Shown: in pieces, positions 11,764-63,417 of the stretch | How the letters are laid out: every line of letters begins with the position of its first letter | How positions within the stretch are numbered: the first letter of the stretch is position 1 | From: Naegleria gruberi | Lineage: Eukaryota | Strand: one strand, 5' to 3' | Assembly (NCBI GenBank): GCA_000004985.1 | Contig: GG738898.1 | DNA length: 64,000 bases | Position numbers and translations under genes: made by a program | Notes under the pieces: model-generated | What the model was told of the DNA's origin: nothing | The model's database searches: none | The model's input: only the letters and a program-made list of their open reading frames with translations

Positions 11764-11850
11764 CCGATGATAGCTCAGCTGGTAGAGCATGGGACTGTAG
11801 CAAGAAAAACTGTCATCCTGTGGTCGGCGGTTCGATTCCGTCTCATCGGA
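11764..11850 (+). tRNA. tRNA-Tyr (anticodon GTA) with a 14-nt intron at about 11801..11814 between positions 37 and 38.
   Basis: The sequence is CCGATGATAGCTCAGCTGGTAGAGCATGGGACTGTAG[caagaaaaactgtc]ATCCTGTGGTCGGCGGTTCGATTCCGTCTCATCGGA. It is near-identical in architecture to the canonical eukaryotic tRNA-Tyr-GTA, with a 7-bp acceptor, a TΨC arm GGTTCGATTCC and an A73 discriminator. A T-run follows. Confidence 0.85.
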
Positions 11851-16746: not shown

Positions 16747-16837
16747 GGTGAGTTGGTCGAGTGGTCTAAGACGACACGTTAAGGTATGTTTAATACCGTG
16801 TTCCGCAAGGGCGTGGGTTCAAATCCCACACTCATCA
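16747..16837 (+). tRNA. tRNA-Leu (anticodon AAG, type II long variable arm) with an 11-nt intron at about 16785..16795.
   Basis: The sequence is GGTGAGTTGGTCGAGTGGTCTAAGACGACACGTTAAGG[tatgtttaata]CCGTGTTCCGCAAGGGCGTGGGTTCAAATCCCACACTCATCA. The anticodon loop TTAAGGC equals the human tRNA-Leu-AAG loop. It has the GAGTGGTCTAA D-loop, an A73 discriminator and a following T-run. Confidence 0.8.
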
Positions 16838-27670: not shown

Positions 27671-29236
27671 CTATGTCTTGTCAAATAGCTCAACTAATGG
27701 TGAAAAATCATCCTGAACATTTAGGTCAAACCAAACCATATATCCCAATCTTAAAACCTTAACACTATCACAATTCAGCAAATGATGTGAAATCCACTCT
27801 ACAATTTCAATCATTTTCTGTACAGTCATATTCTCTTCCTTATAATCCTTATCTTCTCTTTCTATTTTAAATATCAATTGTTTCAATTGTTGCAATTTCT
27901 CAAGTTCCTCAAAAAAGATTCCACTCTCTTCCTTCGTGACTCGGAAATCATTAATTCTTAATATTCTCAAATTTGTCAATTTACCTAAATGCTGCCATTT
28001 CTCTTTTCTATATTTCAAGTCATATTGTTCCTGACCAATGGAGTCTCTTGATACTTCTAATTCTTCCAAGTTGGGAATTAGAGTAAAATTTAGAAATTTC
28101 CAACCAAATGAAAGAGCTAGGGATTTAAGGACAGGAAATCCATTTTTAATTAGTGATTCATTCCATTTCTGATACGATCTAACTCTTAATTTCTGTATTG
28201 ATTTGGATTTGGCAAGTTCAGCAAACGATGTAAATTGCAAATAACAGTCTAGGGTTAGTATTTGTAATTTTGAAACTTTTGAAATTATTGAACAAATTTC
28301 TTGTTCAACATTCTCGAGATAATTACCATTAATGTCTGATATTTCCAATACCCTTAGGTTTTTCAATCTTGTTAACAGGTAAACACTCTCAAGGTGGAGC
28401 CCATTGTTTATACTAAACTCTTCTAAATTTGGAAAACAGGGAATAAAATCATAGGTTAATGTGTTTTTTCTGGATGATATTGAAGTAATTATTTTCAAAG
28501 TTTTACAAGTATTGGCTTTAAACTTTTCTTGTGAATTATATCCAACATAATTTCCTAGTTCAATATTTTCCGTATTTGGAAATACCTTCAACAATAAAGG
28601 CAACAATTCCATTCCATCTTTCTTCAAATTTATAGATTTAATATGTTTAAATGCTGATTGGTTTTCTTTTGATTTTAACATTATTTCAGTTCTTTTTTTA
28701 AGTTCTTCCATATATGTATGTTCTTTTGTAAACATTCTTTCATTAATTCTTGTTGCTTGTTTAATTATTTGAGCCTCCCAAAATGATAAATTGGGTGAAT
28801 TTAATCTTTTTGCAATTCCAAACAAAATCTTGACTTGTTCCAAACTATATTTATGTTTACAATCAAGAACAATGCCATGTTTAAATGTGAACCGAACTCT
28901 ACCATCCAAATAATATCTTCCAAACCAATCCTTTGCAAATCGGGTCCAATTCATGAATGAATCATTCCAAAATTCCCTCTTTCCAACATTGGGTTCAATC
29001 TCAACTGTTCCAACAAAATCAAAGATCATATCAATGCAATCATAGGCAATCCAAGCAAAACTTCGTTTCGGTGGTCTTTTAGTTGGTTGCTTATTATTGC
29101 TTAATTGATTCTTTGCATTCCGATGAAGATTATTGTTATAATTTGAGCATGATGATTTCAAAGTTCGATTATCCAATACTGCAAGAGTATTTGTATTGGT
29201 TGTGTGAGTAGTGGATCTTCGGGTTGGTTTGATCAT
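27671..29236 (-). CDS. Leucine-rich-repeat protein, F-box/LRR-like.
   Basis: The ORF is at 27671..29278 with the first ATG at about 29236. LRR-type repeats include LKNLRVLEISDINGNYLENVEQEICSIISKVSKLQILTLDCY and LIPNLEELEVSRDSIG. Confidence 0.55.
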   Translation of the reverse strand: MIKPTRRSTTHTTNTNTLAVLDNRTLKSSCSNYNNNLHRNAKNQLSNNKQPTKRPPKRSFAWIAYDCIDMIFDFVGTVEIEPNVGKREFWNDSFMNWTRFAKDWFGRYYLDGRVRFTFKHGIVLDCKHKYSLEQVKILFGIAKRLNSPNLSFWEAQIIKQATRINERMFTKEHTYMEELKKRTEIMLKSKENQSAFKHIKSINLKKDGMELLPLLLKVFPNTENIELGNYVGYNSQEKFKANTCKTLKIITSISSRKNTLTYDFIPCFPNLEEFSINNGLHLESVYLLTRLKNLRVLEISDINGNYLENVEQEICSIISKVSKLQILTLDCYLQFTSFAELAKSKSIQKLRVRSYQKWNESLIKNGFPVLKSLALSFGWKFLNFTLIPNLEELEVSRDSIGQEQYDLKYRKEKWQHLGKLTNLRILRINDFRVTKEESGIFFEELEKLQQLKQLIFKIEREDKDYKEENMTVQKMIEIVEWISHHLLNCDSVKVLRLGYMVWFDLNVQDDFSPLVELFDKT

Positions 29237-29426
29237 TTTTTTAATGGATATTTGGGATTTACTTTTGTTACAGCTCAATTACTCCTATTCCTTAAATTCC
29301 GTAACAATAAAAAACCAAATTGGCCAAGTACCTGGTACTCCAGCCTTTTTACTTTGCATATTATTTGAAAATTATTAAGGAACGAGATCTATGTACATTA
29401 AAAGTTATTATTTTTTGGGATTTGAT

Positions 29427-29532
29427 GGCTACGGCCATATCACGATGAATGCACCTCATCCCGTCCGATTTGAGAAGTTAAGCATCGTCGAGCCACATCA
29501 GTACTGAGGTTGGAGACAACTTGGGAACCTGT
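29427..29532 (+). rRNA. 5S rRNA gene copy lacking the last 12 nt of helix I, so probably a truncated copy or pseudogene.
   Basis: The sequence is GGCTACGGCCATATCACGATGAATGCACCTCATCCCGTCCGATTTGAGAAGTTAAGCATCGTCGAGCCACATCAGTACTGAGGTTGGAGACAACTTGGGAACCTGT. This is 5S-like (GGCCATA...CCCGTCCGAT...GAAGTTAAGC). It is 100% identical to the minus copy over 106 nt. It then diverges and lacks the GGTGCTGTAGTC 3' end. Confidence 0.6.
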
Positions 29533-29888
29533 AAATTCATTTTACAAATTGTTAGATGAATTGTGGGGTGGATTAGCATTTGAATTTGTGAAGAATTCAA
29601 ATAGGATAAAGACTATTAACAAACAAACATTATTTTTGATCAATTTGAAGCATTAACAAATATAATTAGATTACATAAATCTTTTCTCATTGTTTCCACT
29701 AATTAATTCTAATCCAAATTTGTTTGCCTTATTAAATCCAATAACTTGAAGGAAAATCTTGGAAGACAGAGAGTACTGGAGTAAGATTGTGCTTAGACTT
29801 GAAATTCTAAAAATATTTTGAAAACAACAAACTCGTGTCCCTGAATCATGGTATTTTAATTGGCATTTCCTATTCTCTCCATAAAGAT

Positions 29889-29893
29889 AAAAA
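29889..29893 (-). terminator. Pol III T5 terminator directly downstream of the minus-strand 5S gene.
   Basis: A5 on the plus strand is T5 on the gene strand, right after the 5S 3' end. Confidence 0.55.
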
Positions 29894-30011
29894 GACTACA
29901 GCACCACAGGTTCCCAAGTTGTCTCCAACCTCAGTACTGATGTGGCTCGACGATGCTTAACTTCTCAAATCGGACGGGATGAGGTGCATTCATCGTGATA
30001 TGGCCGTAGCC
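29894..30011 (-). rRNA. 5S rRNA gene, full length at about 118 nt.
   Basis: The reverse complement is GGCTACGGCCATATCACG...GGGAACCTGTGGTGCTGTAGTC. The 3' end pairs with the 5' end as helix I (GGCUACGGC / GCUGUAGUC). A T5 run follows. Confidence 0.8.
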
Positions 30012-30311
30012 ATTCACTAACAAAAAATGTTGAATATTAATGAAGAAAACTCTTGTCTGCAATTATGAAACATAAATTGACCTCCTAATAATCCAATAGT
30101 CACAATCCAGTTCGTTATCTTTAAAGCAGCAAACAATTTCCATTCAAATTTCATCTTGCTCATTCATTTCCATTTATCAACAAGCAACTTGGCATCTCTG
30201 ATAAAGACACATCAGGTCCAAACTAATCCACTCCTCGACCCGTCAATCTACAAAATCAGATAAACACATCTACGAAATAAGAACCATCAAATATCCAAAC
30301 ATAAAAAAAAA

Positions 30312-32944
30312 ATGAACAAGACATTTGGCATGTTATCATGTCTGTTACTCTGTCTCATTGTATGCCTCGTCAGTGAAGAGACACACGCATTGACAGCAAC
30401 AGAATTATTGCAAGTTAGAGCAACTCTCCTTTCAAATGTCACTTCAATTCCTTATTCATATGTTGGTTATTTGTTTAGTCATGGCAGCAATTCTGTTCCA
30501 ATTATTGTTGGTTCTGGAGGTAATGCAGTAGTAGTTGCAGCTACTAGCTCCAATTCCTTGTCCACAGCTGGTCGAATTTGTGCATTTGGACATAACGGTT
30601 ATGCATACACATCTGACATGACATCTGGCACAGCTCAATTATTGAAAAATTGTGCTAAATGGACTACCAAAAACAAAGCCAATGTCAGTTACATGCTACA
30701 CGGAGTCAGTCAAAGTGGTGGCTCCACTTTTTATAACTCAATTTCAGGATTTTCATTGAACACATCAAAGAATGCATTCGACGAATTGGTTCGTCCATTA
30801 GAAAGCGTTGATTTACTAATTTTGAATTTAAATTCACTCTCAGGTGAGGCAACCTCCACTCAAATCCAAATGCTCTCCGACTTTTTGAATAGAGGTGGTG
30901 GAATTATTTGTGTAACTACTGCTTGGGCTTATTCCATTTCTGGAAATAGATTTCCTGGAAATGTGTTCTTTTCCAGATTGGGAGTTTCATTCTATACAGC
31001 TTATTTTGAAGGTAGCCCATTTGTGGCATCTACTAAGGATTTGAGTGAAGTGAATGCTTATTTCAAATTGGAACAAATTCAAAATACCTTTTCTTTATAT
31101 GGAAATGTTTCTACAGATGATGTGAATACAGTTGGAAATATGCTATCCAATGTGTATCCAACATTGCCACAGCCAATTACCTTAAATTCCATTGAAACGA
31201 ATCAAAAAGCCAAAACTGTCTATGATTCCATTTGTGGAAGTACAACAATTTCCTTCCCAGTTTCGTCTTCTTTCCAGAAATTCTGTGTAGTCATGGTGGA
31301 CACACTAAACAAGGCAAACATTTTACCAATCTCAAATAATCCACAAGTTTTGGCAGGTGAAAACTTCCCNNNNNNNNNNNNNNNNNNNNNNNNNNNNNNN
31401 NNNNNNNNNNNNNNNNNNNNNNNNNNNNNNNNNNNNNNNNNNTATATCGTATAGTGGAGGTACCATTTACTTTGATGTGTCCAAAATTCCGTTATCCTTC
31501 ACTGCAACCATCACAGGACAAGTGGTAAAAANCTCCCTTTTTTAGAAATGACCTTCACACAGATTCTGATTGGAAAAATACCATTAGAAATTATCCAGGA
31601 CCTTGGGTAGAAGTTGAATCCGATTATTTCGTATTCAATGTTGAGTCGTCCTATGCCAGAAACTTGACAGAATTGACCAGTGTCACAAATTACTGGAAAA
31701 AGGTTTTGGAGCTTTATTATGAACTCTCCCAAAGACCAATTAGAGATTATAAGGAAAGAATGCAAATTGATATCGATATTTCAATTGGATATATGCATTC
31801 TGGATACCCAATTATGGCATTTCAGGACCAAAATGAAGGAACTATTAAGGCAGTCAACCCTGCCAACATGGCTCTTGCTTCAAAAACTCCTGGACGTTGG
31901 GGACATTACCATGAATTGGGACACAATTTCCAAGTTTCTGATTGGACCTACTCTCAAGCAGTTGAAGTAACTTGTAATATTTTCTCTTTATATTTGGAAG
32001 AGAATTTCCCAGATTCGGCCAATACTTATGGAAAGTCGTTTAATCCACCGAGAGGTCTTGAGACCACTTTTAAGGGAAATACTCAGGATTATAAGGGGGA
32101 TTGGACAAGTGCTGGTTTATTGTTTTATTTGGATTTGATTCAAGCTTTCGGTTGGGTTTCTATTCGAAAGGCATTTGCTGAATATTATACAGCAGCTTCT
32201 GGAACTTTACCAACCAGCGAGGATGAAAAGAGAGATCAATGGGTTGTAAGATACAGTAAGATTGTTGGTAGAAATCTTGGGCCTTTCTGTGATGCTTGGA
32301 GTTTCCCAATTTCACAATCAGCCAAAAGTCAAGTTTCTAATTTAACTTCATGGATGCCAAATAATTTCATTGTTGGATGTTCAGTAGCTCGTTTCTCTGA
32401 TTCACCTTGTGCTTCATTAACCATTCAAGATAATTCCTATGCCAAGTCAACCACCTATGAAGTGAAAATTGTAACTTGGACACCAGTGAGAAGTATTTAT
32501 GGTGAACGTTTCATTTTCACTTTCGGTGGTGATTCTCTTCCTCAATTACAAACTGGAACAACAGCTCTCACCTTATTGGATGGAACAACAAGTTTGAACT
32601 CAACTGCTGTTGTGACTAATAATAATGGAACGAGTATTACACTTTCGACCAATGTTGTCGAGTTTGTCAAATCTGGACAACTATTGAAATTCTCCTTCCA
32701 AGCAAAGAATAGTGTCAAGATTGGAAGCTTTACCACTTCAATTAAGATATTGGATTCAAAGAATGTATTGGTAAATGTTGTGGAGAGACCATTAGAGTTT
32801 ACCAATTCAATTGTCATTCCAACTTCATCTTCAACAGTGGTTGGAAAGAAGAGTACAGTTACTGGCAATTCTACCAAGAACGGGATGAATGTAGTGTTAA
32901 TTGCATTCTTGATTGGTTGGGTATTATTTGTTTATTCCTTCTAG
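30312..32944 (+). CDS. Secreted or membrane-anchored M60-like (enhancin / TCAF-type) zinc metallopeptidase. It is interrupted by an N-gap at 31370-31442 and has an apparent 1-nt frameshift near 31532-31545.
   Basis: It has a signal peptide, MNKTFGMLSCLLLCLIVCLVSE. The M60-like core reads DSDWKNTIRNYPGPWVEVESDYFVF...GRWGHYHELGHNFQ (HExxH) ...EV.... It has a hydrophobic C-terminus, VVLIAFLIGWVLFVYSF, which is a TM or GPI signal. The two ORFs at 30312..31454 and 31664..32944 are on the same strand either side of the gap. Confidence 0.65.
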
Positions 32945-37740: not shown

Positions 37741-40700
37741 ATGCCAGCTACTATCTTGAACGGTTCTACCACTTCAAGTTCTGGTCTCAATATTAACCTT
37801 TCATTGTTGGTAAGTTTACATATTTCACATGAGCTTAATTATAATTCTTTATTGTTGTTGTTGCTGATCTTTCTCCACACCAATGACATCTGGCACTGTG
37901 ATCTCTCTTACTCTTTCGATATTTTAATATCACATGCTAAACTAATTACTTTGAATGGCCATGTTGTTTCTTTTCTAAATTCTCCACTTTGACCAAAACG
38001 CGGTCAATTCAACTTTTTAAAAAATTGGCATCACATTTGATCTTCTGAATCTTTGCAACGCGATTTTCCTTCTTTGCTCCTTTGGCGCTTTTTCTGGTGC
38101 GGTTCAATCATCATCAATATTAATTTATTGTTAAAATTACTTTTTTAAATGATGAATCCGTGTTGAGTAGAAAGGAGGTACTATTAGTCAGACAATTGTA
38201 TGTTTTTTAAATATTTTGTATGTTTAATATTTTGAATGTTAGGTTGGTGCAATTATTACAGCTTTGGTAGTTGCTTCCACAGTTGCTACTATTATCTTGG
38301 TTTCAGTTGGTGTTGGTTATTCTAGTCCTCAACCGTATGTACTTTTAAAATTCATTATTTGAAATTAATTGAAATCTAGTCAACCTGATTTTGCTACTAC
38401 TTACAAGAGAGTGCCTATTACTGTTGATGTACTCATAAATGATAACGATCCACGTGGTGGTAATCTTACTTTGACTCAAATTGTTGATCAACCAAAGTAT
38501 GGTACTGTCAAGATTCTTTCTCGTTCCCAAGTTGTTTATCAATCCATTGGTTCTTTCTCTGGAAATGACACTTTCAGTTATGAAGTTAGTAATTCCTTTG
38601 TTACAGCCAATGCTACTGTTACTGTTCAAGTTTTGAATAGACCTCCTCAAGCTGTTCCAATCTATAAGAAGATCTCCAAGAATGCTAATAAGGCTCTCGT
38701 TGATATTTTCAATTATATTGGTGACAATGATGAAAAGATTACTGATATTGATAATGATGTCTTGTATGTTACTGGCTTCGCTGATCAACAAGTTACCAGT
38801 GGTAATGCTCAAAGTTTAGGTGCAATTGAAATTGATCCTTACAATGGTTTCTTGTACACTCCTGTTAATGGTTTCAATGGTATCGAACAATTCAAGTATA
38901 CCATCTCAGATGGTAATGACACTGCTTCTTCAACTGTTACTGTTGAAGTTGAAAATGATGCTCCTGTTGCTACTGATGATGTTTACAGAATTCCAAAATA
39001 TAGTAGTTTGGAATTGCTCATTTTACAAAATGATTATGATATCAATGGTGATGATTTCAATGTTACCAACGCTGTTGGTGCTGGTTATGGTGCTCTTCGT
39101 GTTCAAGACAAGACTGTTGTCTATTTCACTTCAAGTGTTTTAACCAAAAAGTATACTGATTCTTTCGAATATTCAATTTCTGATAGTCAAGCTTCAGGAT
39201 CTGCTGTAGTTTCTGTTCAAGTTTACAATACTGAACCAACTGTCTACTCCAAGACTGTCACTGTTGGAAAGTCCTCTTCCAATAACCTCATTTCAATTGA
39301 TTACTCTGATCCTGATGGAAAGGATGTTGTCGTATTGACCAAAGTTACTCCTGCATTGGCCTCTCTTAATCCAGCTGCTTCCATGCAAGTTGCTAAGGGT
39401 ACTAAACGTGTCAACCTTGATTGTTGTGATTGGGTTAGCGTTGAAACTAATAATTACACTATTGTTTATACTCCAACTCCTGGAGTTGTTTACTCACAAA
39501 CTTTGGATATTTCCATGACAGATGGTGAATCTGATGGCTATGGTAAGATTACTATTAATGTAGTCAATAATCCACCTGTTGCTGTTGATGACACTGTTAC
39601 TTGTAATAAGAATCAACAAGTTTTGATTAATGTTCTTGCCAATGACTATGATGTTAACCCAGGCGATACTGAACTTCTTCAATTAACTAATAACGGTTGG
39701 CAATCAACTACCAAGAATGGTGGTTCTGTTTCTATTTATAATGCTACACATGTATTGTATGTTGCTCCAAAGGGTAGTTTGGCTACTGATGTTGCCTCCT
39801 ATAGAATCTATGATCAAAGCAAAGATGTACAAGGTAATCCAGATTCTACTGGTTTCTCAACTGGTAAGATTAGTATTAACATTATCAATAATCCACCTGT
39901 TCCTGTTGATGATGTTTTTACTATTTCAAAGGGTCTTAATGCCACTTTGAACGTTTTGAATAATGATTATGATCCTAATTTCGATCTTATTTCAACAATT
40001 AACTCTGTTGATAGATCAACTGTTAAAAATATCTTGGCTACTATTGTTAAGAATTCTGGTGAAAATGATACCTTATTCTATACTGCTGCTAATGAAGAGT
40101 ACACTGATTACCTTACTTATGATGTAATTGATGTTGACGGTTTGGTTTCTGAAAATAAGGCCACTGTCACTTTGAATGTTGTCAATAATGCTCCAGTTGC
40201 TAGAGATGATACTTATAGTGTTAACTGGAATCACAATATTTTGTGCCCTGTCAAGACTAATGATGCTGATATCAATGGTGATTTGCCTTCTTCCAAGATT
40301 GAAATTTATCAAAATCCATCTAATGGTGTTGTTGAAGTTATTAGTGATAGTGTAAGATATACTCCAAATACTGCATTTGTTGGTGTTGATACTTTCCAAT
40401 ACAAGTTGAACGATGGTAGTGTTGCCAATTTCTTGTCAAATGCTGCTACTGTTACAATTAATGTTTTGAATACTGCTCCTGTTGCTGTTGATGATACTGC
40501 CACTACTCACTGGAGAAATGATGCTGGTGTTTTAGTCAGTGTTTTGGTTAATGATTCTGATAATGAAGGTGATTCCTTGTCTGTTACCAATGCTCTAGTT
40601 GATGCTGTACTGCTTCAGTTTTTGATAGTCAAACTGTCAAGTTTGTTTCAACTCAAACCTCTGCTACTGTTGGTACTAAGCAAATTAAGTATACCGTCTC

Positions 40701-43700
40701 TGATGGAAACAAGAATACCATTGGAAATGTCAATGTCTTGGTTACAAATACCAAACCAGTCGCTTTTGCTGATGCTTACACTTACCACTGGGCTGCTCCA
40801 AAACAAACATTGAGTGTCATGTCTAACGATAAGGATGCCGACCTTGATCCAATTTCAATCAAATCTGTTTCTGGAAGTGCTGCCGCTGTTAAGAATGGAA
40901 ATGATATTGATTATACTCCAAAGAAGGATGGTGTTACTGATACCTTCCAATATGTCATTACTGATACTGTTACTGATGCTGATCCAGCAACTGTCACTGT
41001 TACTTTCACTAACAATGACAAGCCAGTTGCTTCAAGTGTTTCAACTTCTATTCACTGGAGAGCTTTCGCTGCTCAATCTAATCAACAAGATTTCTCTGTT
41101 TATTCCTCAACAACTGATGCTGATGGTGACGCTCTTACATTGACTGTTAATCCAACTGCTACTGGTATTTCTGGTGCTTCATGTAGCAAGACCACTGATT
41201 CAATTGCCAAGGTTAGAGTTACAGCTCCAACCAAGACTACTGGTTCTGCCACCTGTTCCTTCTCAGTTTCTGATGGTTTGGCAAATACTGGATCAAAGAC
41301 TGCTACTGTTACTATAACTAACAATGCTCCAACATGTACTGATATTACTGTTTTCTTCAATGCTATCTATGTGTCAGTTGGTCAAACATTCTCCGTTTCT
41401 TCATCTGTTAGTGATGCTGATTCTGCTGATGTTCCTTATTTGGCAGCTAGTAGTGCAATCATGTCTGGTTCATTCTCAGGTGATACATTCTCTGTTTCAA
41501 ATGGTAACCTCCTCTTCAAACCAAATGGTCAATTGGGTAATCGTGTTTATGGTTATAAGGTTACTGATGGTATTGTTGAATCTAGCCAATGTAAATTCAC
41601 TATCATTGTTAGCTCACTTTCTAATGCTGATTATTCACAAGCCTATGATGTTCACTGGAATGTTACCAAGGCTTTCCTTAATATTACTTCCAAGTTGACC
41701 ACATCAACCATTATGGGTATTGTTCAACAACCTTCTGAAGGAATTGCTTACTTTGAAGGTGGTAAGATTTATTTCACTCCTGCCAGAAAGATCTATCTTG
41801 ATTCTTTCATTGTTAGTGTTAAAGATGGTATTGTTAGTAACGTCTCTGTTTCAGTTTCCACTTACAATAATGCTCCAACTGCCAGTGTTCCAACTCAAAA
41901 TATTAATTGGGGTAAATCAGTTGTGATTGATTTGTTACAAAATTATGCTGATGCTGATTATTCTGCTGGTCGTGAAATTAAGGGAAAAATTTCTGGTGTT
42001 GACAAGACTGGTACTTTGGGTACTGTTTCTGCACTCTCTGGTTCAAGTGTTACTTACACTTCTCCAGCCAATTATGTTGGTTCTGATTCATTCAAAGCTA
42101 CTGCTACTGATGGTCTTGCCTTTGTAACTTTCACTGTTACTATCAATATAATCAATACTGCTCCAGTTACTAATGCCAAATCATACACTGTTCACTGGGC
42201 TGTTCACAAACTTGGTTACACAATGAATTTGGCCACAGGTGTCACTGATGGACAAAATGATCCATTGACTTATGGTATTGTTTCTGGAAGTGTTTCACCA
42301 TCTAGTGCTGGTACTGTTGCCATTTCCACTTCACCAAATGCTGTTGCTACTGCTGGTACATCTGTTTATTTGGGCAAGTTTACATACTCTTATACTGCTT
42401 CTGATTCTCTCCTCTCTTCTCCAGGTACTGCCACTGTTACTGTTTATAATACTATGGTTACACCTGTTGCTGACTCTTTGAGTGTTCACTGGAGAGCAAC
42501 TAATGTTCCTTTGAATCCATTTGCCAAGTTTGCTCCTACCTATAAGGATTCTGAAGGTGATAGTTTAACAATTCAAACTGCAACTGCTCAAAAGGGTACA
42601 GTTTCCATTGTTTCTGGTTCTCAATCATTACTTTACAATGCTCCAACTAGTCCACCTTCTCTTGGTACTGATGTAGTTTCATACAAGTTTACTGATGGTG
42701 CTGAATCTCTCCAAAGCACTGCTACTGTTGTCAATGTAAATGTTTATAACACTGTCCCAACTGCCAAGAATCAAGTTGTTTATGGAAAGTGGAATTCTCC
42801 TGTTTCAGTTTCTTTAGCTAATGTCTGTTCTGATATTGATACATTGGATATTCCATATGTTGCATTCAATGGTGTTATTTCAAATGTTGCTGGTGGTTCA
42901 ACAAGTCTCTCTGGTACAACTGTTACCTTCACTCCAAGTGTTACCTCTCTTGTTTTTACTCAAATTTCTGGTAATCTTTACAATGCTACTGCATCATTCA
43001 AATTCCAATGTTTCGATGGTATTTCTACCAGCACTGGTAATGTCACTATTATTCTTTCAAACAATGCTCCAACCGGAACTGGTAAGACTGTCAATATTGC
43101 CAGAGATTACACCAAGACAACTTATGATTTTACCTGGTCTGAAATTGCCACCTATGCCAACCCTGATGTTGATGGAGATTCAGTAACTATTACTAATCTT
43201 GTCTCTGTTGATTCTTCCATCACTGTGGAACAGGTATTAGATTGAACACTCCAAAGACTGTTTCTGGAACTAAGCAAATTACTTTCTACTTGTATGATGG
43301 TCTTCACTATAGCATCAGCAAGTTGACATTTACTGTAATCTTTAGTAATTCTGCTCCAACTTGTGGTGTTGTTTCAACAATATATTTAAATAAGAAGGGA
43401 AGTGTTGATCTCTCAACTAAATTCTCAGGAACAGATTCCAATAATGATCCAATTACTTTCACCTTATCTGGTTCACCTGGTTCATTGGGTACTTTGAGTG
43501 GTAAGGTATTTACTGCCTCAGCAACTAATACTGGTACTGTTACCTTCTCTTACACTGCAACTGATACACAATTGACAAGTTCATCATGTAGTATTCAAAT
43601 TATCATCCAAAATGCTAATCCATCTGCCAATGATACAATCTTTTATATTTATCCAACTGCTGATTCTTTGTCTCACTACTTGAGCTATAAGGCAACTGAT

Positions 43701-45086
43701 GCAGATGGTGATACTTTGACTTATACTGCTGGTTCAAACAATTGTTCATCCATTTCTACAGGTGTTAGCATGAACTCAGCAAGTGGATTGATCACATTCA
43801 AGAGAATTTACACTGTTGTTTCTGGTACTTGTAAAATGAGTGTTTCTGTATCTGATTCTAATACTCCTTCTGGTAAAAGTAATGCCACCATTACATTTGT
43901 GATCGTTCCAATTGATCCAGTTGCCAGAGATGACAGATTCTCAATTCCTCAAGGTCAAACAATCAGAATTTTCGCTTCACAAATCTTGGCAAATGACAAT
44001 GATGAATTGGGTACTTCTAGCACTCTCACATTATTGAACATTAGTTGTCCAGATGCTACTTATTGCCACAAGCAACCAAGATTTGTAACTGTTAATGATG
44101 AAATTGCTGTTGAAGTTGACTCTGACCAAAATACTTGCCAAGCTGATAAGTTCAGATATACAATGACTACTGCACTTGGAGCTATTAGAAGTGCTGATGT
44201 CTACATTGAGTTCAAGAATTGCTATTGTACTGCCAAACTTGACTTTGTCTTTTTATTGGACTCTTCTCAATCAATTGGTGTACCAAACTTTAACCTAATC
44301 AGAGATTTGTGTCAGAGAATTACTGGTAGAATGAAGCTTGCTGATGATGCCGTAAAAGTTTCCATCGTTCGCTTCCATTCTTCTGCTACACTGACCTTGG
44401 CCTTGTCAACTGATGGATCTTTGATCAATAAGACCTTATCTACTATGAAGTACGACGCTGGCTTTACCGCACAAGTGCCCGGACTAAGAGCTGCAGTCAA
44501 TGCATTAAGACCAGAAAATGGTGGAAGAGCTGATGCTGATAAGGTCATTTATATTTTAACAGATGGTCTTGCCAATGTACCTTGCGATTGTTCTTCTTGT
44601 GAATCTGAATGGGGAACAATTCCAAGTGTTTTCAAAGACTCTGTTCAAAACAAAATTATTAATGGAATGACTAATCCTGCAAAATCTACTGCCTTGAGAA
44701 ATATGTGTAAATATCAATATAATGACGGATCTGAATTGGTTGGAACTGATTGTAGTTCATGTAGTATGAAAGATGAATATATGTGTTTGCCATGTTCAGA
44801 TGCTATTCCTGTTGCTGCAAAGATTAATACTTGGAAACGTAATTCTAATGGAGTAGTTCCAAATGATCCTGATAATCCATATAATGGAAACAATAAGGTT
44901 CAATGGAAGGTTGTTGCTATGGCTGTCGGTGACGCCATGACCAATGTTTGGGGTTCAAGACAAATCGAAGGTATGAATTATGATTCAACTAGAGCTATTA
45001 CTGTTTCTTGGACTGATTTATCTGGTACCATGAGTGAAATTGTGGATCAATCTTGTAATCAAGTTAACGTTCAAGTTCCAGTTTAA
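37741..45086 (+). CDS. Giant type-II-like single-pass membrane adhesin of at least 2300 aa. It has a short N-terminal cytoplasmic tail, one TM helix, then about 25 tandem bacterial-Ig/cadherin-like (VCBS / tandem-95-type) repeats of about 90-100 aa, a C-terminal von Willebrand factor A domain and a Cys-rich tail. The exons are about 37741..37809, 38243..38334 (TM) and 38380..45086. The big exon carries two apparent 1-nt frameshifts, near 40605-40615 and 43225-43240.
   Basis: Exon 1 is MPATILNGSTTSSSGLNINLSLL|GTAAGT. Exon 2 encodes VGAIITALVVASTVATIILVSVGVGYSSPQP. A GTATGT...AATCTAG intron of 45 nt follows, with matching phase. The repeats have the pattern PVAxDDxYxxxxNxxLxxxVLxNDxDxxGDxLxvt...GtvxxxxxxvxYTPxxxFxGxDxFxYxxxDGxxxxxATVTIxVxN. 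The VWA domain reads KLDFVFLLDSSQSIGVPNFNLIRDLCQRITGRMKLADDAVKVSIVRFHSSATLTLALS...ADKVIYILTDGLANV. The three consecutive ORFs at 38369..40813, 40738..43245 and 43242..45086 overlap by a few nt with +1 frame changes. Confidence 0.7.
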
Positions 45087-46167: not shown

Positions 46168-47811
46168 ATGATAACCCTCCAATTCTTGCTCAATTTATGC
46201 AGTTATTTCATCACGGCAGGAATTGTAATTTTCCTATTGTGGTTTCTGTATGCCACCATCATATTGTACATTAATTATAAAAAGCTTGCACACATTCCTG
46301 GTCATTTCCAATATTTATTTGCTCCATTCCGAATTCCTCTTCTTGCTCCTCGTATTTATCTTGGCAATTTTGAAGGAATTGAAAAAGCCTTTGATGAATT
46401 TTCTGATGGAAATGGAGTTTTGAGAATGTCATTTGTGAGAGGCAATACTGTCATGATCAAAAACAAGCAAATGCTCAAGGAATTCTTTGTAACAAAACAA
46501 TCAAGTTTTGAAAAACCAGAATTCATCTATAGCATGTTTGAAATGTTTGGGCAGAATGTGTTGAGTGCACCAGATGTTTCGGATTGGAAGAGACATCATA
46601 AAGTGGCACATCCAGCATTTTCCATTGATAATTTGCAGTACATGTGTGAGGAGGCTGTGGAATGCACTGATTTGTTGGTGGATCGTTGGATCAATAGCCA
46701 TTCTGGTAAGAGTTTCGAATTGAAAGATGATGAAATTGGTGAAGCCATGTCTACCGTAACTGTTGAGGTTTTAGGTCGTGCTGGATTGAAAGTTTCATTT
46801 GGAATGTTTGATAGAGAGGATTCACATGCTGAGGAGTTCAAGAATGCAGTTAATTTGCTAGTTTCTAAGGGTCTTTTAGTACAGAGATTCTTTGGAAAGA
46901 ATCCATTTCTCTACAAGTGGTCACAGAGATTATTAGGAGTGGATAAAGCTGTTTCCATTGTGAATAGAGTTTTGAATAATAGTATTGTGGATAGAAAGAA
47001 GGAATTGGAAAGTGATTTTGGTAATTTCTCAAAGAAGGACATTCTGAGCTTGTTGGTCAAGGCAAATGCTGAGGAAAAGACCTTGACAGATATGGAGCTA
47101 AAGAGCAATTCATTGATTTTCTTACTTGCTGGAGAGGAGGTTTGTTATTTTAAATTGTGTGATTAATTTTTTCAATTAATAATTAATTCAGACAACATCC
47201 TCATCGTTGCAATGGGTTTTATACGAGTTGGCTAAACACCCTGAGTATCAGAAAAGAGCTAGAGAAGAAATCAATTCAGTACTTCCTAACAAGGCAAAGC
47301 CAAATTATGAAACTGTACAAGCATTGCCATTCACAACAGGTGTTATTTTGGAAGCTCTTCGTCTTCATCCTCCTGTCTTTTCAGTTGCCAAACAAACAGT
47401 GAAGAATGTCAAGTTGGGAGATTATGAAATTCCAAAGAATACCCTTGTCACTGTGTTCATTTATGGAGTGAATAGAAGTAAGGAATATTGGAAAGATCCT
47501 GAAGAGTATCAACCAGATAGATTTATGGATATGGAGCTAAGAAACAAATCTCAACATGATTTTACATTTCTTTCATTTTCTATGGGTCAAAGAAAGTGTA
47601 TTGTAAGTATAGAGTTGTTGGCTAATGTGGCTAATATGAAAATAAGGGATTTCAATTTGCTCAACTGGAAGCTTGTATGATTTTGGTGCGCTTGTTGCAA
47701 AACTTTGAATTCACTCTTCTGAACGACGAATCCAAAGAGAAAGTCAGGGCTATGAAAAACGTTACAATCAGACCAGCAAATCTAAAATTGTTGATCAAGC
47801 CAACAAAATAA
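46168..47811 (+). CDS. Cytochrome P450 monooxygenase, about 515 aa. It has three exons at about 46168..47139, 47192..47602 and 47647..47811.
   Basis: It has an N-terminal membrane anchor, AGIVIFLLWFLYATIILY. The I-helix FLLAGEE|TTSSSLQWVLYELAKHPEYQ is split by a 52-nt GTTTGT...AATTCAG intron. The PERF-like motif is EALRLHPP. The heme-binding loop FSMGQRKCI|GFQFAQLEACMILVRLLQNFEF is split by a 44-nt GTAAGT...AAG intron. The frames check out. Confidence 0.8.
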
Positions 47812-59737: not shown

Positions 59738-61646
59738 NNNNNNNNNNNNNNNNNNNNNNNNNNNNNNNNNNNNNNNNNNNNNNNNNNNNNNNNNNNNNNN
59801 NNNNNNNNNNNNNNNNNNNNNNNNNNNNNNNNNNNNNNNNNNNNNNNNNNNNNNNNNNNNNNNNNNNNNNNNNNNNNNNNNNNNNNNNNNNNNNNNNNNN
59901 NNNNNNNNNNNNNNNNNNNNNNNNNNNNNNNNNNNNNNNNNNNNNNNNNNNNNNNNNNNNNNNNNNNNNNNNNNNNNNNNNNNNNNNNNNNNNNNNNNNN
60001 NNNNNNNNNNNNNNNNNNNNNNNNNNNNNNNNNNNNNNNNNNNNNNNNNNNNNNNNNNNNNNNNNNNNNNNNNNNNNNNNNNNNNNNNNNNNNNNNNNNN
60101 NNNNNNNNNNNNNNNNNNNNNNNNNNNNNNNNNNNNNNNNNNNNNNNNNNNNNNNNNNNNNNNNNNNNNNNNNNNNNNNNNNNNNNNNNNNNNNNNNNNN
60201 NNNNNNNNNNNNNNNNNNNNNNNNNNNNNNNNNNNNNNNNNNNNNNNNNNNNNNNNNNNNNNNNNNNNNNNNNNNNNNNNNNNNNNNNNNNNNNNNNNNN
60301 NNNNNNNNNNNNNNNNNNNNNNNNNNNNNNNNNNNNNNNNNNNNNNNNNNNNNNNNNNNNNNNNNNNNNNNNNNNNNNNNNNNNNNNNNNNNNNNNNNNN
60401 NNNNNNNNNNNNNNNNNNNNNNNNNNNNNNNNNNNNNNNNNNNNNNNNNNNNNNNNNNNNNNNNNNNNNNNNNNNNNNNNNNNNNNNNNNNNNNNNNNNN
60501 NNNNNNNNNNNNNNNNNNNNNNNNNNNNNNNNNNNNNNNNNNNNNNNNNNNNNNNNNNNNNNNNNNNNNNNNNNNNNNNNNNNNNNNNNNNNNNNNNNNN
60601 NNNNNNNNNNNNNNNNNNNNNNNNNNNNNNNNNNNNNNNNNNNNNNNNNNNNNNNNNNNNNNNNNNNNNNNNNNNNNNNNNNNNNNNNNNNNNNNNNNNN
60701 NNNNNNNNNNNNNNNNNNNNNNNNNNNNNNNNNNNNNNNNNNNNNNNNNNNNNNNNNNNNNNNNNNNNNNNNNNNNNNNNNNNNNNNNNNNNNNNNNNNN
60801 NNNNNNNNNNNNNNNNNNNNNNNNNNNNNNNNNNNNNNNNNNNNNNNNNNNNNNNNNNNNNNNNNNNNNNNNNNNNNNNNNNNNNNNNNNNNNNNNNNNN
60901 NNNNNNNNNNNNNNNNNNNNNNNNNNNNNNNNNNNNNNNNNNNNNNNNNNNNNNNNNNNNNNNNNNNNNNNNNNNNNNNNNNNNNNNNNNNNNNNNNNNN
61001 NNNNNNNNNNNNNNNNNNNNNNNNNNNNNNNNNNNNNNNNNNNNNNNNNNNNNNNNNNNNNNNNNNNNNNNNNNNNNNNNNNNNNNNNNNNNNNNNNNNN
61101 NNNNNNNNNNNNNNNNNNNNNNNNNNNNNNNNNNNNNNNNNNNNNNNNNNNNNNNNNNNNNNNNNNNNNNNNNNNNNNNNNNNNNNNNNNNNNNNNNNNN
61201 NNNNNNNNNNNNNNNNNNNNNNNNNNNNNNNNNNNNNNNNNNNNNNNNNNNNNNNNNNNNNNNNNNNNNNNNNNNNNNNNNNNNNNNNNNNNNNNNNNNN
61301 NNNNNNNNNNNNNNNNNNNNNNNNNNNNNNNNNNNNNNNNNNNNNNNNNNNNNNNNNNNNNNNNNNNNNNNNNNNNNNNNNNNNNNNNNNNNNNNNNNNN
61401 NNNNNNNNNNNNNNNNNNNNNNNNNNNNNNNNNNNNNNNNNNNNNNNNNNNNNNNNNNNNNNNNNNNNNNNNNNNNNNNNNNNNNNNNNNNNNNNNNNNN
61501 NNNNNNNNNNNNNNNNNNNNNNNNNNNNNNNNNNNNNNNNNNNNNNNNNNNNNNNNNNNNNNNNNNNNNNNNNNNNNNNNNNNNNNNNNNNNNNNNNNNN
61601 NNNNNNNNNNNNNNNNNNNNNNNNNNNNNNNNNNNNNNNNNNNNNN
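59738..61646. other. Assembly gap of 1909 N. Other N-runs are at 8439-8478, 15226-15275, 31370-31442, 55904-56134 and 63116-63165.
   Basis: These are runs of n characters in the sequence. The gap sits inside or at the 5' edge of the retroelement. Confidence 0.95.
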
Positions 61647-61879: not shown

Positions 61880-63417
61880 ATGCTCACCAAGCAAGTGGAA
61901 CCTCTTCAAATTCCTCCAACTCAAACAACAACAATAAATGATGCCAACATTCCTCTTGGTGGTCGCCTCTCTCGTTTTCACAGCCGATGGCAAGAATTCG
62001 GTGTTTCCAACATGATTCACGATTGGATTCAAAACGGAATTCCAATAGATTCCGATTCAAATCGTTGGAAAAATTACCATCAGAGGAAATTCTCTACTAC
62101 AGAGAAACAATGGATCCAAAAAGAGATTGGTTCCATGTTGAAAGAAGGAGTAATTGTTCACTCCCCAAACATCGTTATCAACCCTATAAACGTAGTTCCA
62201 AAGAAAGGGTCAGACCAATTCAGATTCATTTTGGATCTAAGAAAGGTCAACGATGGAATAGATCCAGATTCCTTCAAAATGGAATCAGTGCAGAAAATCA
62301 TGAAATTCCTATGCAAAGGAATGTGGGCATGCAAAATAGACCTAAAGAAAGGTTATTTTCACGTTCCCATCAAGGAGGAACATCAACACCTCCTAGGGTT
62401 CATATTCGAAGAAGAATTCTACCAATTTACATGTCTTCCATTCGGTCTAAGCACAGCTCCCCGAAGCTTTACGAAAATAATGAAAGAAATCGTAAAGAAA
62501 TGGCGGCTGAAAGGAATCATGGTCTTTATTTACATAGACGACATCCTTTTAGTGGGAAATTCGTTCGATTTGGTACTAGAAAATCTCCGAACGTTAATAA
62601 CAGACTTAAAATTCCTTGGATGGCTTCTTCAAGAAGAGAAATCAGTTCTGATTCCAACTCAAACTATTCAGTTTCTAGGCCTCCTCTTCGATTTAGAAAA
62701 TGGGAAAGTTCTAATTCCAGAAGACAAGAAAGTAATAGCTATGGATATCATGGACAAACTAATCTTAGCAGAATCTCAAAGATCTCTGTTAAACTTAAGA
62801 TTCGTCGCCAAATTCATAGGAAAAATGGAGTTCCTAGCATTAGCAGAACCAGCAATCATGCCATTCCTAGACAGATTAAGAAAGCAAATGTGCAATCGGG
62901 TAGAAATGAAAGGATGGAATGGCACAATGATGATAAATCGTGGTCCTATGAAAGATTTATGTTTCCTCAAAGAAATCTGGCAAGATTCTGGAACGTGGTT
63001 AGAACTGGAATCTCCCAAAGCAGTAATAATCAATTCAGACGCAACTCTCTCAGGATTCGCCATCCATTCATCAAATCTTGTCATTGTGGGTCAATTCCAA
63101 GAAGAATCCTCTATANNNNNNNNNNNNNNNNNNNNNNNNNNNNNNNNNNNNNNNNNNNNNNNNNNGGAGACAATCAACCATCCTTAGTTTATGTAAGAAA
63201 GGGCTATGGTTCAATAGAACACCTCTCATCAATAGCAAGAGACTTGTGGACCATTCTCAAGTTGAAAGATTGGCACATTTCCAAAACAGTGTACATTCCA
63301 TCAGAAGTAAACAACATTGCCGACAGACTAAGCAGACTGGGAGATTGGAAATCTTCTCAAGAATTGATAAATTTGGTAGAAGAAGAATTCGGTTCGCAAG
63401 GTCAGAGTCAGCAGTGA
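61880..63417 (+). CDS. Retroelement pol covering the reverse transcriptase and RNase H domains. The frame is broken by the 63116-63165 N-gap.
   Basis: See the motifs above. Before the gap the reading frame is that of ORF 61880..63187. After the gap it is that of ORF 61987..63417, which ends ...DRLSRLGDWKSSQELINLVEEEFGSQGQSQQ*. Confidence 0.7.

Follow-up and report, generated by a model that had tools for sequence, protein, structure and literature searches.

In a 64-kb stretch of the Naegleria gruberi genome (the whole of which is called the window below), two copies of the 5S rRNA gene face each other across an AT-rich spacer, and one of them lacks its 3' end. The question raised by this locus is whether the perfect identity of the two inverted copies records a recent local rearrangement, as an initial annotation of the stretch proposed, or a property of the 5S gene family as a whole. 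The pair is real, correctly called as 5S and ordinary. It very probably consists of two neighbouring members of a dispersed 5S family, namely a working gene on the minus strand and a truncated pseudogene on the plus strand, whose identity stems either from homogeneity across the family or from a recent loss of the 3' end.

Layout and genomic context of the 5S rRNA pair

An ungapped comparison of positions 29427-29532 (plus strand) with the reverse complement of 29906-30011 yields 106 matches in 106 positions, in agreement with the base-for-base identity of the arms given in the initial annotation. Its assignment of both arms to 5S rRNA is likewise borne out by the Rfam covariance model RF00001, which scores 105.4 bits on the minus-strand copy and 69.6 bits on the plus-strand copy, both above the gathering score of 38. 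These are the only two 5S copies in the 64 kb. They are convergent (tail-to-tail) with 360 nt between their 3' ends, so that no head-to-tail array with a regular period is present.

The two protein-coding open reading frames (ORFs) on either side of the pair are divergent, both pointing outward, and leave a gap of 1,033 bp. The ORF list and the Rfam results thus agree with the annotated position between protein-coding genes and outside a tandem array. The order is mirror-symmetric (gene to the left, 5S to the right, 5S to the left, gene to the right), and the 5S starts are found 148-300 nt from the nearest protein-coding start. The left flanking ORF (27671-29278, minus strand, 535 aa) starts 148 nt (29279-29426) from the plus-strand 5S copy and is transcribed away from it. 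It carries a weak leucine-rich repeat signal (Pfam LRR_14, E 2e-8, under the curated cut-off). For its N-terminal 320 aa, no homologue is found at E<=1e-20 among 5.8 billion proteins, the N. gruberi gene models included, and its C-terminal part is called as a gene in contig L001, an independent contig with 99.6% identity to the window. The right flanking ORF (30312-31369, plus strand), taken from the ORF list, is also transcribed away from the pair and enters a run of Ns at 31370-31442. Behind this gap, an ORF at 31664-32944 (plus strand) encodes an M60-like (enhancin-type) metallopeptidase (Pfam Peptidase_M60, E 4e-44). Both ORFs are probably parts of one gene that is split by the N gap.

The spacer between the 5S copies (29533-29892) is 360 nt long with a GC content of 27%. 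A blastn search against the window returns the self-match alone, and within the window the spacer is therefore the unique AT-rich sequence it was described as. The initial annotation further proposed to search it for SL RNA or snRNA sequences. This search came back empty, as Rfam reports neither of these nor any other RNA family in the spacer at E<=1.

The window as a whole has ~35% GC and contains long intron-poor ORFs, intron-containing tRNA genes and scaffold gaps. Among its other features is an ORF of 1692 aa for a PAS-adenylate cyclase, whose product is 100% identical to a predicted protein of N. gruberi. Three consecutive or overlapping ORFs (814, 835 and 614 aa) at 38369-45086 (plus strand) are rich in 'bacterial' Ig (Big_9), cadherin-like and VWA domains. 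They are probably parts of a single giant gene for a surface protein; the types of domain prompt the question of a bacterial origin. A cytochrome P450 is split into ORFs at 46168-47166 and 47207-47680 (plus strand), whose distance of 40 nt fits a short intron or a frameshift. Close to the scaffold end, an ORF at 61880-63187 (plus strand) encodes a reverse-transcriptase domain (Pfam RVT_1, E 3e-22). It adjoins a 1.9-kb N gap (59738-61646) and is probably part of a retroelement that broke the assembly.

The intact copy and the 5S rRNA gene family

In the N. gruberi assembly, 279 putative dispersed 5S genes have been reported that are not linked to the rDNA unit (PMC3369914). The 18S-5.8S-28S genes of Naegleria are encoded on a circular extrachromosomal element (PMC5805870), and 5S genes on chromosomes are therefore expected. 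According to PMC3369914, N. gruberi 5S genes have a TATA box upstream and an internal control region.

The minus-strand copy (29893-30011, 119 nt) matches RF00001 over model positions 1-120 with 105.4 bits (E 4e-22). It folds into the canonical three-helix 5S shape at -41.5 kcal/mol, including a helix I of 9 bp. A scan for T runs places a T5 run, the putative Pol III terminator, at 29889-29893 (minus strand); the Rfam match ends on the first T of this run. Model, fold and T run accordingly agree with the earlier description of this copy as complete, with helix I closed and a T5 terminator. An anchored comparison with the plus-strand copy and other 5S loci delimits a promoter-like region upstream (30012-30056, minus strand). 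This region contains CATTAA at -31 to -26 (30037-30042), a T6 run at -16 to -11 (30022-30027) and AAT directly before +1, and it shares 22-24 of 45 positions with the other 5S loci (null expectation 14.2 +/- 3.0). Like the 5S genes described in PMC3369914, the minus-strand copy thus combines a TATA-like element upstream, an internal control region and a T run. It also belongs to the majority sequence type of the N. gruberi 5S family, with a 117-nt match and a similarity of 0.75, as for most entries in Table S1 of that study. Judged by these signals, it would be an ordinary 5S rRNA gene that is transcribed by Pol III and whose product enters the ribosome, in other words one of ~260 intact copies that presumably supply the cell with 5S rRNA.

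Four further Naegleria 5S loci (L003 to L006) were compared with the pair. L003 was obtained from a 21-mer scan of metagenomes (one contig), and L004 to L006 were found via translated 5S peptides that match, in a protein collection, three spurious ORFs overlapping 5S genes; 21-mer 5S scans of viral and prokaryotic genome collections gave no further loci. The 5S gene of L004 matches the minus-strand copy in 119 of 119 positions. It comes from an independent assembly and represents a different locus with a different downstream flank; contigs of the same sample are 99.6% identical to the window. L003, from an environmental relative, differs by 1 nt. L005, which belongs to another species, has two compensatory double changes, both in the helix next to helix I, and because these changes are compensatory, the 5S family is considered to be under structural selection. 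In L006, the 5S variant has a 2-nt insertion in loop C.

Identity in the gene body is thus found across the family and therefore provides no evidence of a recent local event. The same follows from the edges of the identical segment. The perfect identity of the pair stops exactly at 5S position +1. In the 45 nt upstream, the two copies agree in 29 positions (64%), with CATTAA and T6 in the same register, and both copies share 19-24 of 45 positions with unrelated 5S loci, where 14.2 +/- 3.0 matches are expected under the null; the family consensus was derived from four upstream sequences. Judging from these alignments, the upstream similarity is a promoter-like family signature and no edge of a recent duplication. 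In a recent inverted segmental duplication or palindrome, the arms would be identical up to arbitrary breakpoints at both ends, which is not the case here. A true breakpoint of rearrangement exists at the inner end alone, after position 106. With zero differences in 106 nt, the arms are compatible with any age up to ~2-3% neutral divergence. From the loci compared, the 100% identity is best attributed to family-wide homogeneity, maintained by selection and/or ectopic gene conversion, or to a truncation that is itself recent.

The initial annotation had read the identity as a sign of recent duplication, gene conversion or a palindrome-forming rearrangement. Duplication and palindrome formation find no support, given the perfect match of L004 and the end of identity at +1. 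Gene conversion remains viable as a genome-wide process, but a local event cannot be deduced from the identity of the two arms. The idea of a cruciform or fragile site is weak for arms of 106 bp that lie ~370 bp apart, since arms and spacers of this size are poor substrates for inverted-repeat instability.

A local origin of the pair could also be old. One of the 5S genes would then have been copied in reverse ~400 bp away, over a stretch from about -45 to +106, with the body subsequently homogenised by gene conversion and the upstream part left to diverge. The upstream flanks of the pair are indeed closer to each other (29/45) than to those of other loci (19-24/45), CATTAA and T6 are found at exactly equal distances from +1, and the pair is the closest in the published catalogue. 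However, the identity ends at a functional boundary rather than at an arbitrary breakpoint, and an upstream divergence of 36% next to 0% in the body requires an old event, about which the identity would then be uninformative. Other loci share the upstream signature, so that promoter constraint explains most of the similarity, and one such close pair is expected by chance (see below). An old inverted duplication is therefore regarded as unlikely.

The truncated copy and its breakpoint

The plus-strand copy (29427-29532) comprises positions 1-106 of the 119-nt gene, all of them identical to the minus-strand copy. Its Rfam match (69.6 bits) spans 29427-29545 and is flagged as non-canonical in helix I and at the base of the adjoining helix. 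According to the alignment, helix I has lost 5 of its 9 pairs and the adjoining helix 3 pairs, and the copy thus fails as a functional 5S gene. The last 13 nt, which are absent, would supply the 3' strands of both elements, so that neither helix I nor the base of its neighbour can form. The predicted fold of -27.6 kcal/mol (z -0.57) is no better than that of shuffled sequence. The copy combines clear 5S homology with an incomplete coding region and a lost secondary structure, and the earlier view of a 3'-truncated, pseudogene-like copy is confirmed by Rfam, fold and the coverage of positions 1-106. The number of missing nucleotides had been given as 12; the truncation stands, and the count is corrected to 13, as the gene measures 119 nt by its Rfam boundaries.

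In spite of the truncation, the whole internal control region is kept (box A at ~50-64, box C at ~80-97). A reading of the sequence by eye locates a box A-like motif, AGTTAAGC, at 50-57 and a box C-like motif at ~79-96, the latter with two mismatches to the consensus given in PMC3369914. Upstream, the anchored comparison reveals a promoter-like region (29382-29426, plus strand) with CATTAA at 29396-29401 (-31 to -26), T6 at 29411-29416 (-16 to -11) and GAT before +1. As promoter-like blocks and a complete internal control region are retained, transcription of the truncated copy is plausible. The scan for T runs detects T4 at 29540-29543, where Pol III may stop 7 nt beyond the breakpoint, and further downstream T5 at 29633-29637. 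A transcript would be expected to stop at one of the two, ~10-110 nt past the junction; termination at T4 is possible and would give an RNA of ~115 nt. Without helix I, such a truncated RNA would presumably be unstable and should not enter ribosomes.

A function of the pair beyond 5S rRNA could be envisaged, either as a boundary between the divergent genes that is bound by Pol III factors or as a source of a 5S-like regulatory RNA. Such a role would suit the mirror-symmetric layout, with 5S starts 148-300 nt from the protein-coding starts, and the promoter signals kept in the truncated copy. On the other hand, the truncated RNA folds no better than shuffled sequences, T4 and T5 would halt read-through before an antisense 5S RNA is made, and the arrangement is a single instance. 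A boundary or regulatory role of this pair is pure speculation and is considered extremely unlikely.

At the breakpoint, the 5S sequence leaves off as CCTGT|AAATTCATTTTAC. Within the 64 kb, the missing 3' end, GGTGCTGTAGTCTTTTT, matches only the end of the minus-strand copy, and a gene split by an insertion was rejected on these grounds. A slippage deletion between the CTGT repeats at 103-106 and 111-114 was also rejected, because the AAATTCA after the junction does not run on as AGTCTTTTT. Directly past the breakpoint, at 29534-29562 (plus strand), lies a 14-nt near-palindrome, AATTCATTTTACAA/TTGTTAGATGAATT, whose halves are 86% complementary around a 1-nt loop. It may be a chance occurrence in AT-rich DNA or a trace of rearrangement.

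A junction between repeat and non-repeat sequence could in principle be an artefact of assembly or cloning, in which case the organism itself would have no truncated inverted copy. The draft scaffold contains eight N runs within the window, and the pair is just 1.4 kb from one of these. The 5S gene is a 279-copy repeat, and the short-read contigs L004 and L005 break off in a 5S gene. By inference, however, a misjoin inside a repeat would produce a complete repeat with mismatched flanks and no repeat/non-repeat junction. Moreover, the 585-bp structure fits inside one Sanger read, there are no Ns or signs of low quality between 29279 and 30311, and the authors of PMC3369914 found the same two matches, though in the same public assembly. 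Exact look-ups of three small ORFs, two across the junction and one in the upstream flank of the plus-strand copy, gave no match elsewhere. Neither the look-up of a nearby ORF nor a homology search that used the N-terminal portion of the left ORF led to another assembly that covers the pair. L001, from an independent N. gruberi-like sample (99.6% identical), ends 1.1 kb before the pair is reached, at window position 28320. An artefact is given hardly any likelihood.

5S genes are also known as a source of mobile elements, such as the 5S-derived SINEs (SINE3/AmnSINE1, 5S-Sauria, MEG, Ped-1) and the Cassandra TRIMs (PMC10946416). The truncated copy resembles these in that unrelated sequence follows a 5S head with an internal Pol III promoter. 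It could accordingly be the head of a SINE-like element or a retro-pseudogene, with the 5S part fused to an unrelated tail and inserted by reverse transcriptase. As in 5S-derived SINEs (PMC10946416), the entire internal promoter lies within the retained positions 1-106. About seven partial matches of 98-106 nt are listed in Table S1 of PMC3369914, one of them on the same scaffold with equal similarity, and the window contains the reverse-transcriptase ORF at 61880-63187.

In contrast to the random flank of 5S-derived SINEs, the upstream flank of the truncated copy is promoter-like (19-29 of 45 positions, null 14.2 +/- 3.0), and retroposition from +1 would not carry such a flank along. A k-mer search for flanking direct repeats found no target-site duplication around the plus-strand copy. 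The sole flanking direct repeat is the AT-rich 9-nt sequence ATTATTTTT, which occurs 12-20 nt before +1 and again 97 nt beyond the breakpoint and is thus out of register. The tail has neither a LINE-like part nor an A-rich or simple-repeat end. It is unique within the 64-kb window by blastn, with no second copy in the data searched. An exact 24-mer scan for the junction in JGI metagenome contigs, where Naegleria itself is almost absent, was negative. We know of no 5S-derived repeat family that has been described in Heterolobosea. With no target-site duplication or repeated tail and a promoter-like upstream flank, a mobile element was rejected as the main reading and is given only a very slim chance.

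Truncated 5S copies are a familiar kind of sequence. Jacq, Miller and Brownlee are said to have found in 1977 a pseudogene of the Xenopus laevis oocyte 5S gene that consists of a 101-nt 5' portion beside each intact gene, and this ~100-nt 5' fragment is reportedly the first sequence ever named a pseudogene. Work of Rooney and Ward (2005), as cited in PMC5555474, is credited there with the observation that genomes with dispersed 5S genes, such as those of filamentous fungi, commonly contain truncated 5S pseudogenes. Like the Xenopus and fungal pseudogenes, the plus-strand copy is a 5' portion of ~100 nt that lacks the 3' end and helix I and lies no more than a few hundred bases from an intact gene. 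It differs from the Xenopus pseudogene in its inverted rather than direct orientation, in having zero instead of several mismatches, and in being a single locus instead of a part of every repeat unit.

For the truncated pseudogene next to a working 5S gene, the probable starting point is a complete neighbouring gene that lost its 3' end by deletion or another rearrangement. The 106 nt that remain could be kept identical by ectopic gene conversion, with the numerous intact copies as donors.

The pair among the dispersed 5S copies of N. gruberi

Table S1 of PMC3369914 was parsed to place the pair in the genome. It lists 279 matches on 117 scaffolds, 235 of them with the full length of 117 nt and ~20 only partial (80-112 nt). 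Two of the entries lie on scaffold_54, one of 99 nt at 275852-275950 and one of 117 nt at 276314-276430. The window probably represents the final 64 kb of this scaffold; on that assumption, these entries correspond to window positions 29430-29528 and 29892-30008 and both start from 5S position 4. The minus-strand copy then appears to be entry R33454 and the plus-strand copy entry R32335. The pair is therefore already known from this catalogue, and truncated 5S pseudogenes are likewise a known kind. Unlike the present analysis, the catalogue lists intact and truncated copies together, gives no strand and makes no mention of pairs. It scores the arrangement as 'tandem', whereas its coordinates describe irregular loose clusters with gaps of ~1 kb upwards and no arrays.

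With 363 nt between the two matches, the pair is the closest in the table; the next closest is separated by 987 nt. Gaps between neighbours are irregular, from 363 nt upwards, and 33 of 162 are below 5 kb where ~9 are expected, which indicates loose clustering. The N. gruberi genome presented by Fritz-Laylin and colleagues in 2010 reportedly measures ~41 Mb. When 279 copies are placed at random in ~41 Mb, the probability of at least one gap under 400 nt is ~0.53, and a convergent orientation would arise in one case out of four, all arrangements being equally likely. A single close pair is consequently unremarkable, as chance alone gives such a gap about every second time and the copies are loosely clustered in addition.

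Other Pol III genes are found in the window and near one of the additional 5S loci. The window contains two tRNA genes (11764-11850 and 16747-16837, both plus strand) with introns of ~16-17 nt and Rfam scores of 54.8 and 47.4 bits, respectively; ARAGORN in bacterial mode misses the former and leaves the latter unnamed. In L006 (positions 1-1354 of an ENA ERR1078381 contig from an N. gruberi-like metagenome), the 5S variant is encoded between tRNA genes, four of which occur within 1.35 kb. Some 5S copies thus sit in Pol III gene clusters.

Among the partial matches of Table S1, about seven have a length of 98-106 nt. One of these (scaffold_54:144229-144326) is located on the same scaffold as the pair and has a similarity of 0.6695, identical to that of the truncated copy. 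Such matches hint at a recurrent truncation point or at a truncated copy that was itself duplicated, which a one-off deletion would not explain. The 3'-less 5S copies of ~100-106 nt might even form a distinct family transcribed by Pol III, either as a mobile element or as promoter-only relics that gene conversion keeps uniform and to which Pol III factors perhaps bind between divergent genes. A family of this kind is considered very unlikely.

By itself, the pair of a working 5S gene and a truncated neighbour matters little. It touches on the wider question of how ~280 unlinked 5S copies stay identical and whether truncated copies contribute to this homogenisation, that is, on concerted evolution without tandem arrays, a question that one locus cannot answer. 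For the N. gruberi catalogue, it means that one listed '5S gene' is a truncated pseudogene, and that pipelines based on Rfam thresholds still call such a copy 5S. In a genome with hundreds of dispersed and homogenised 5S genes, the perfect identity of two neighbours is no sign of a recent local event.
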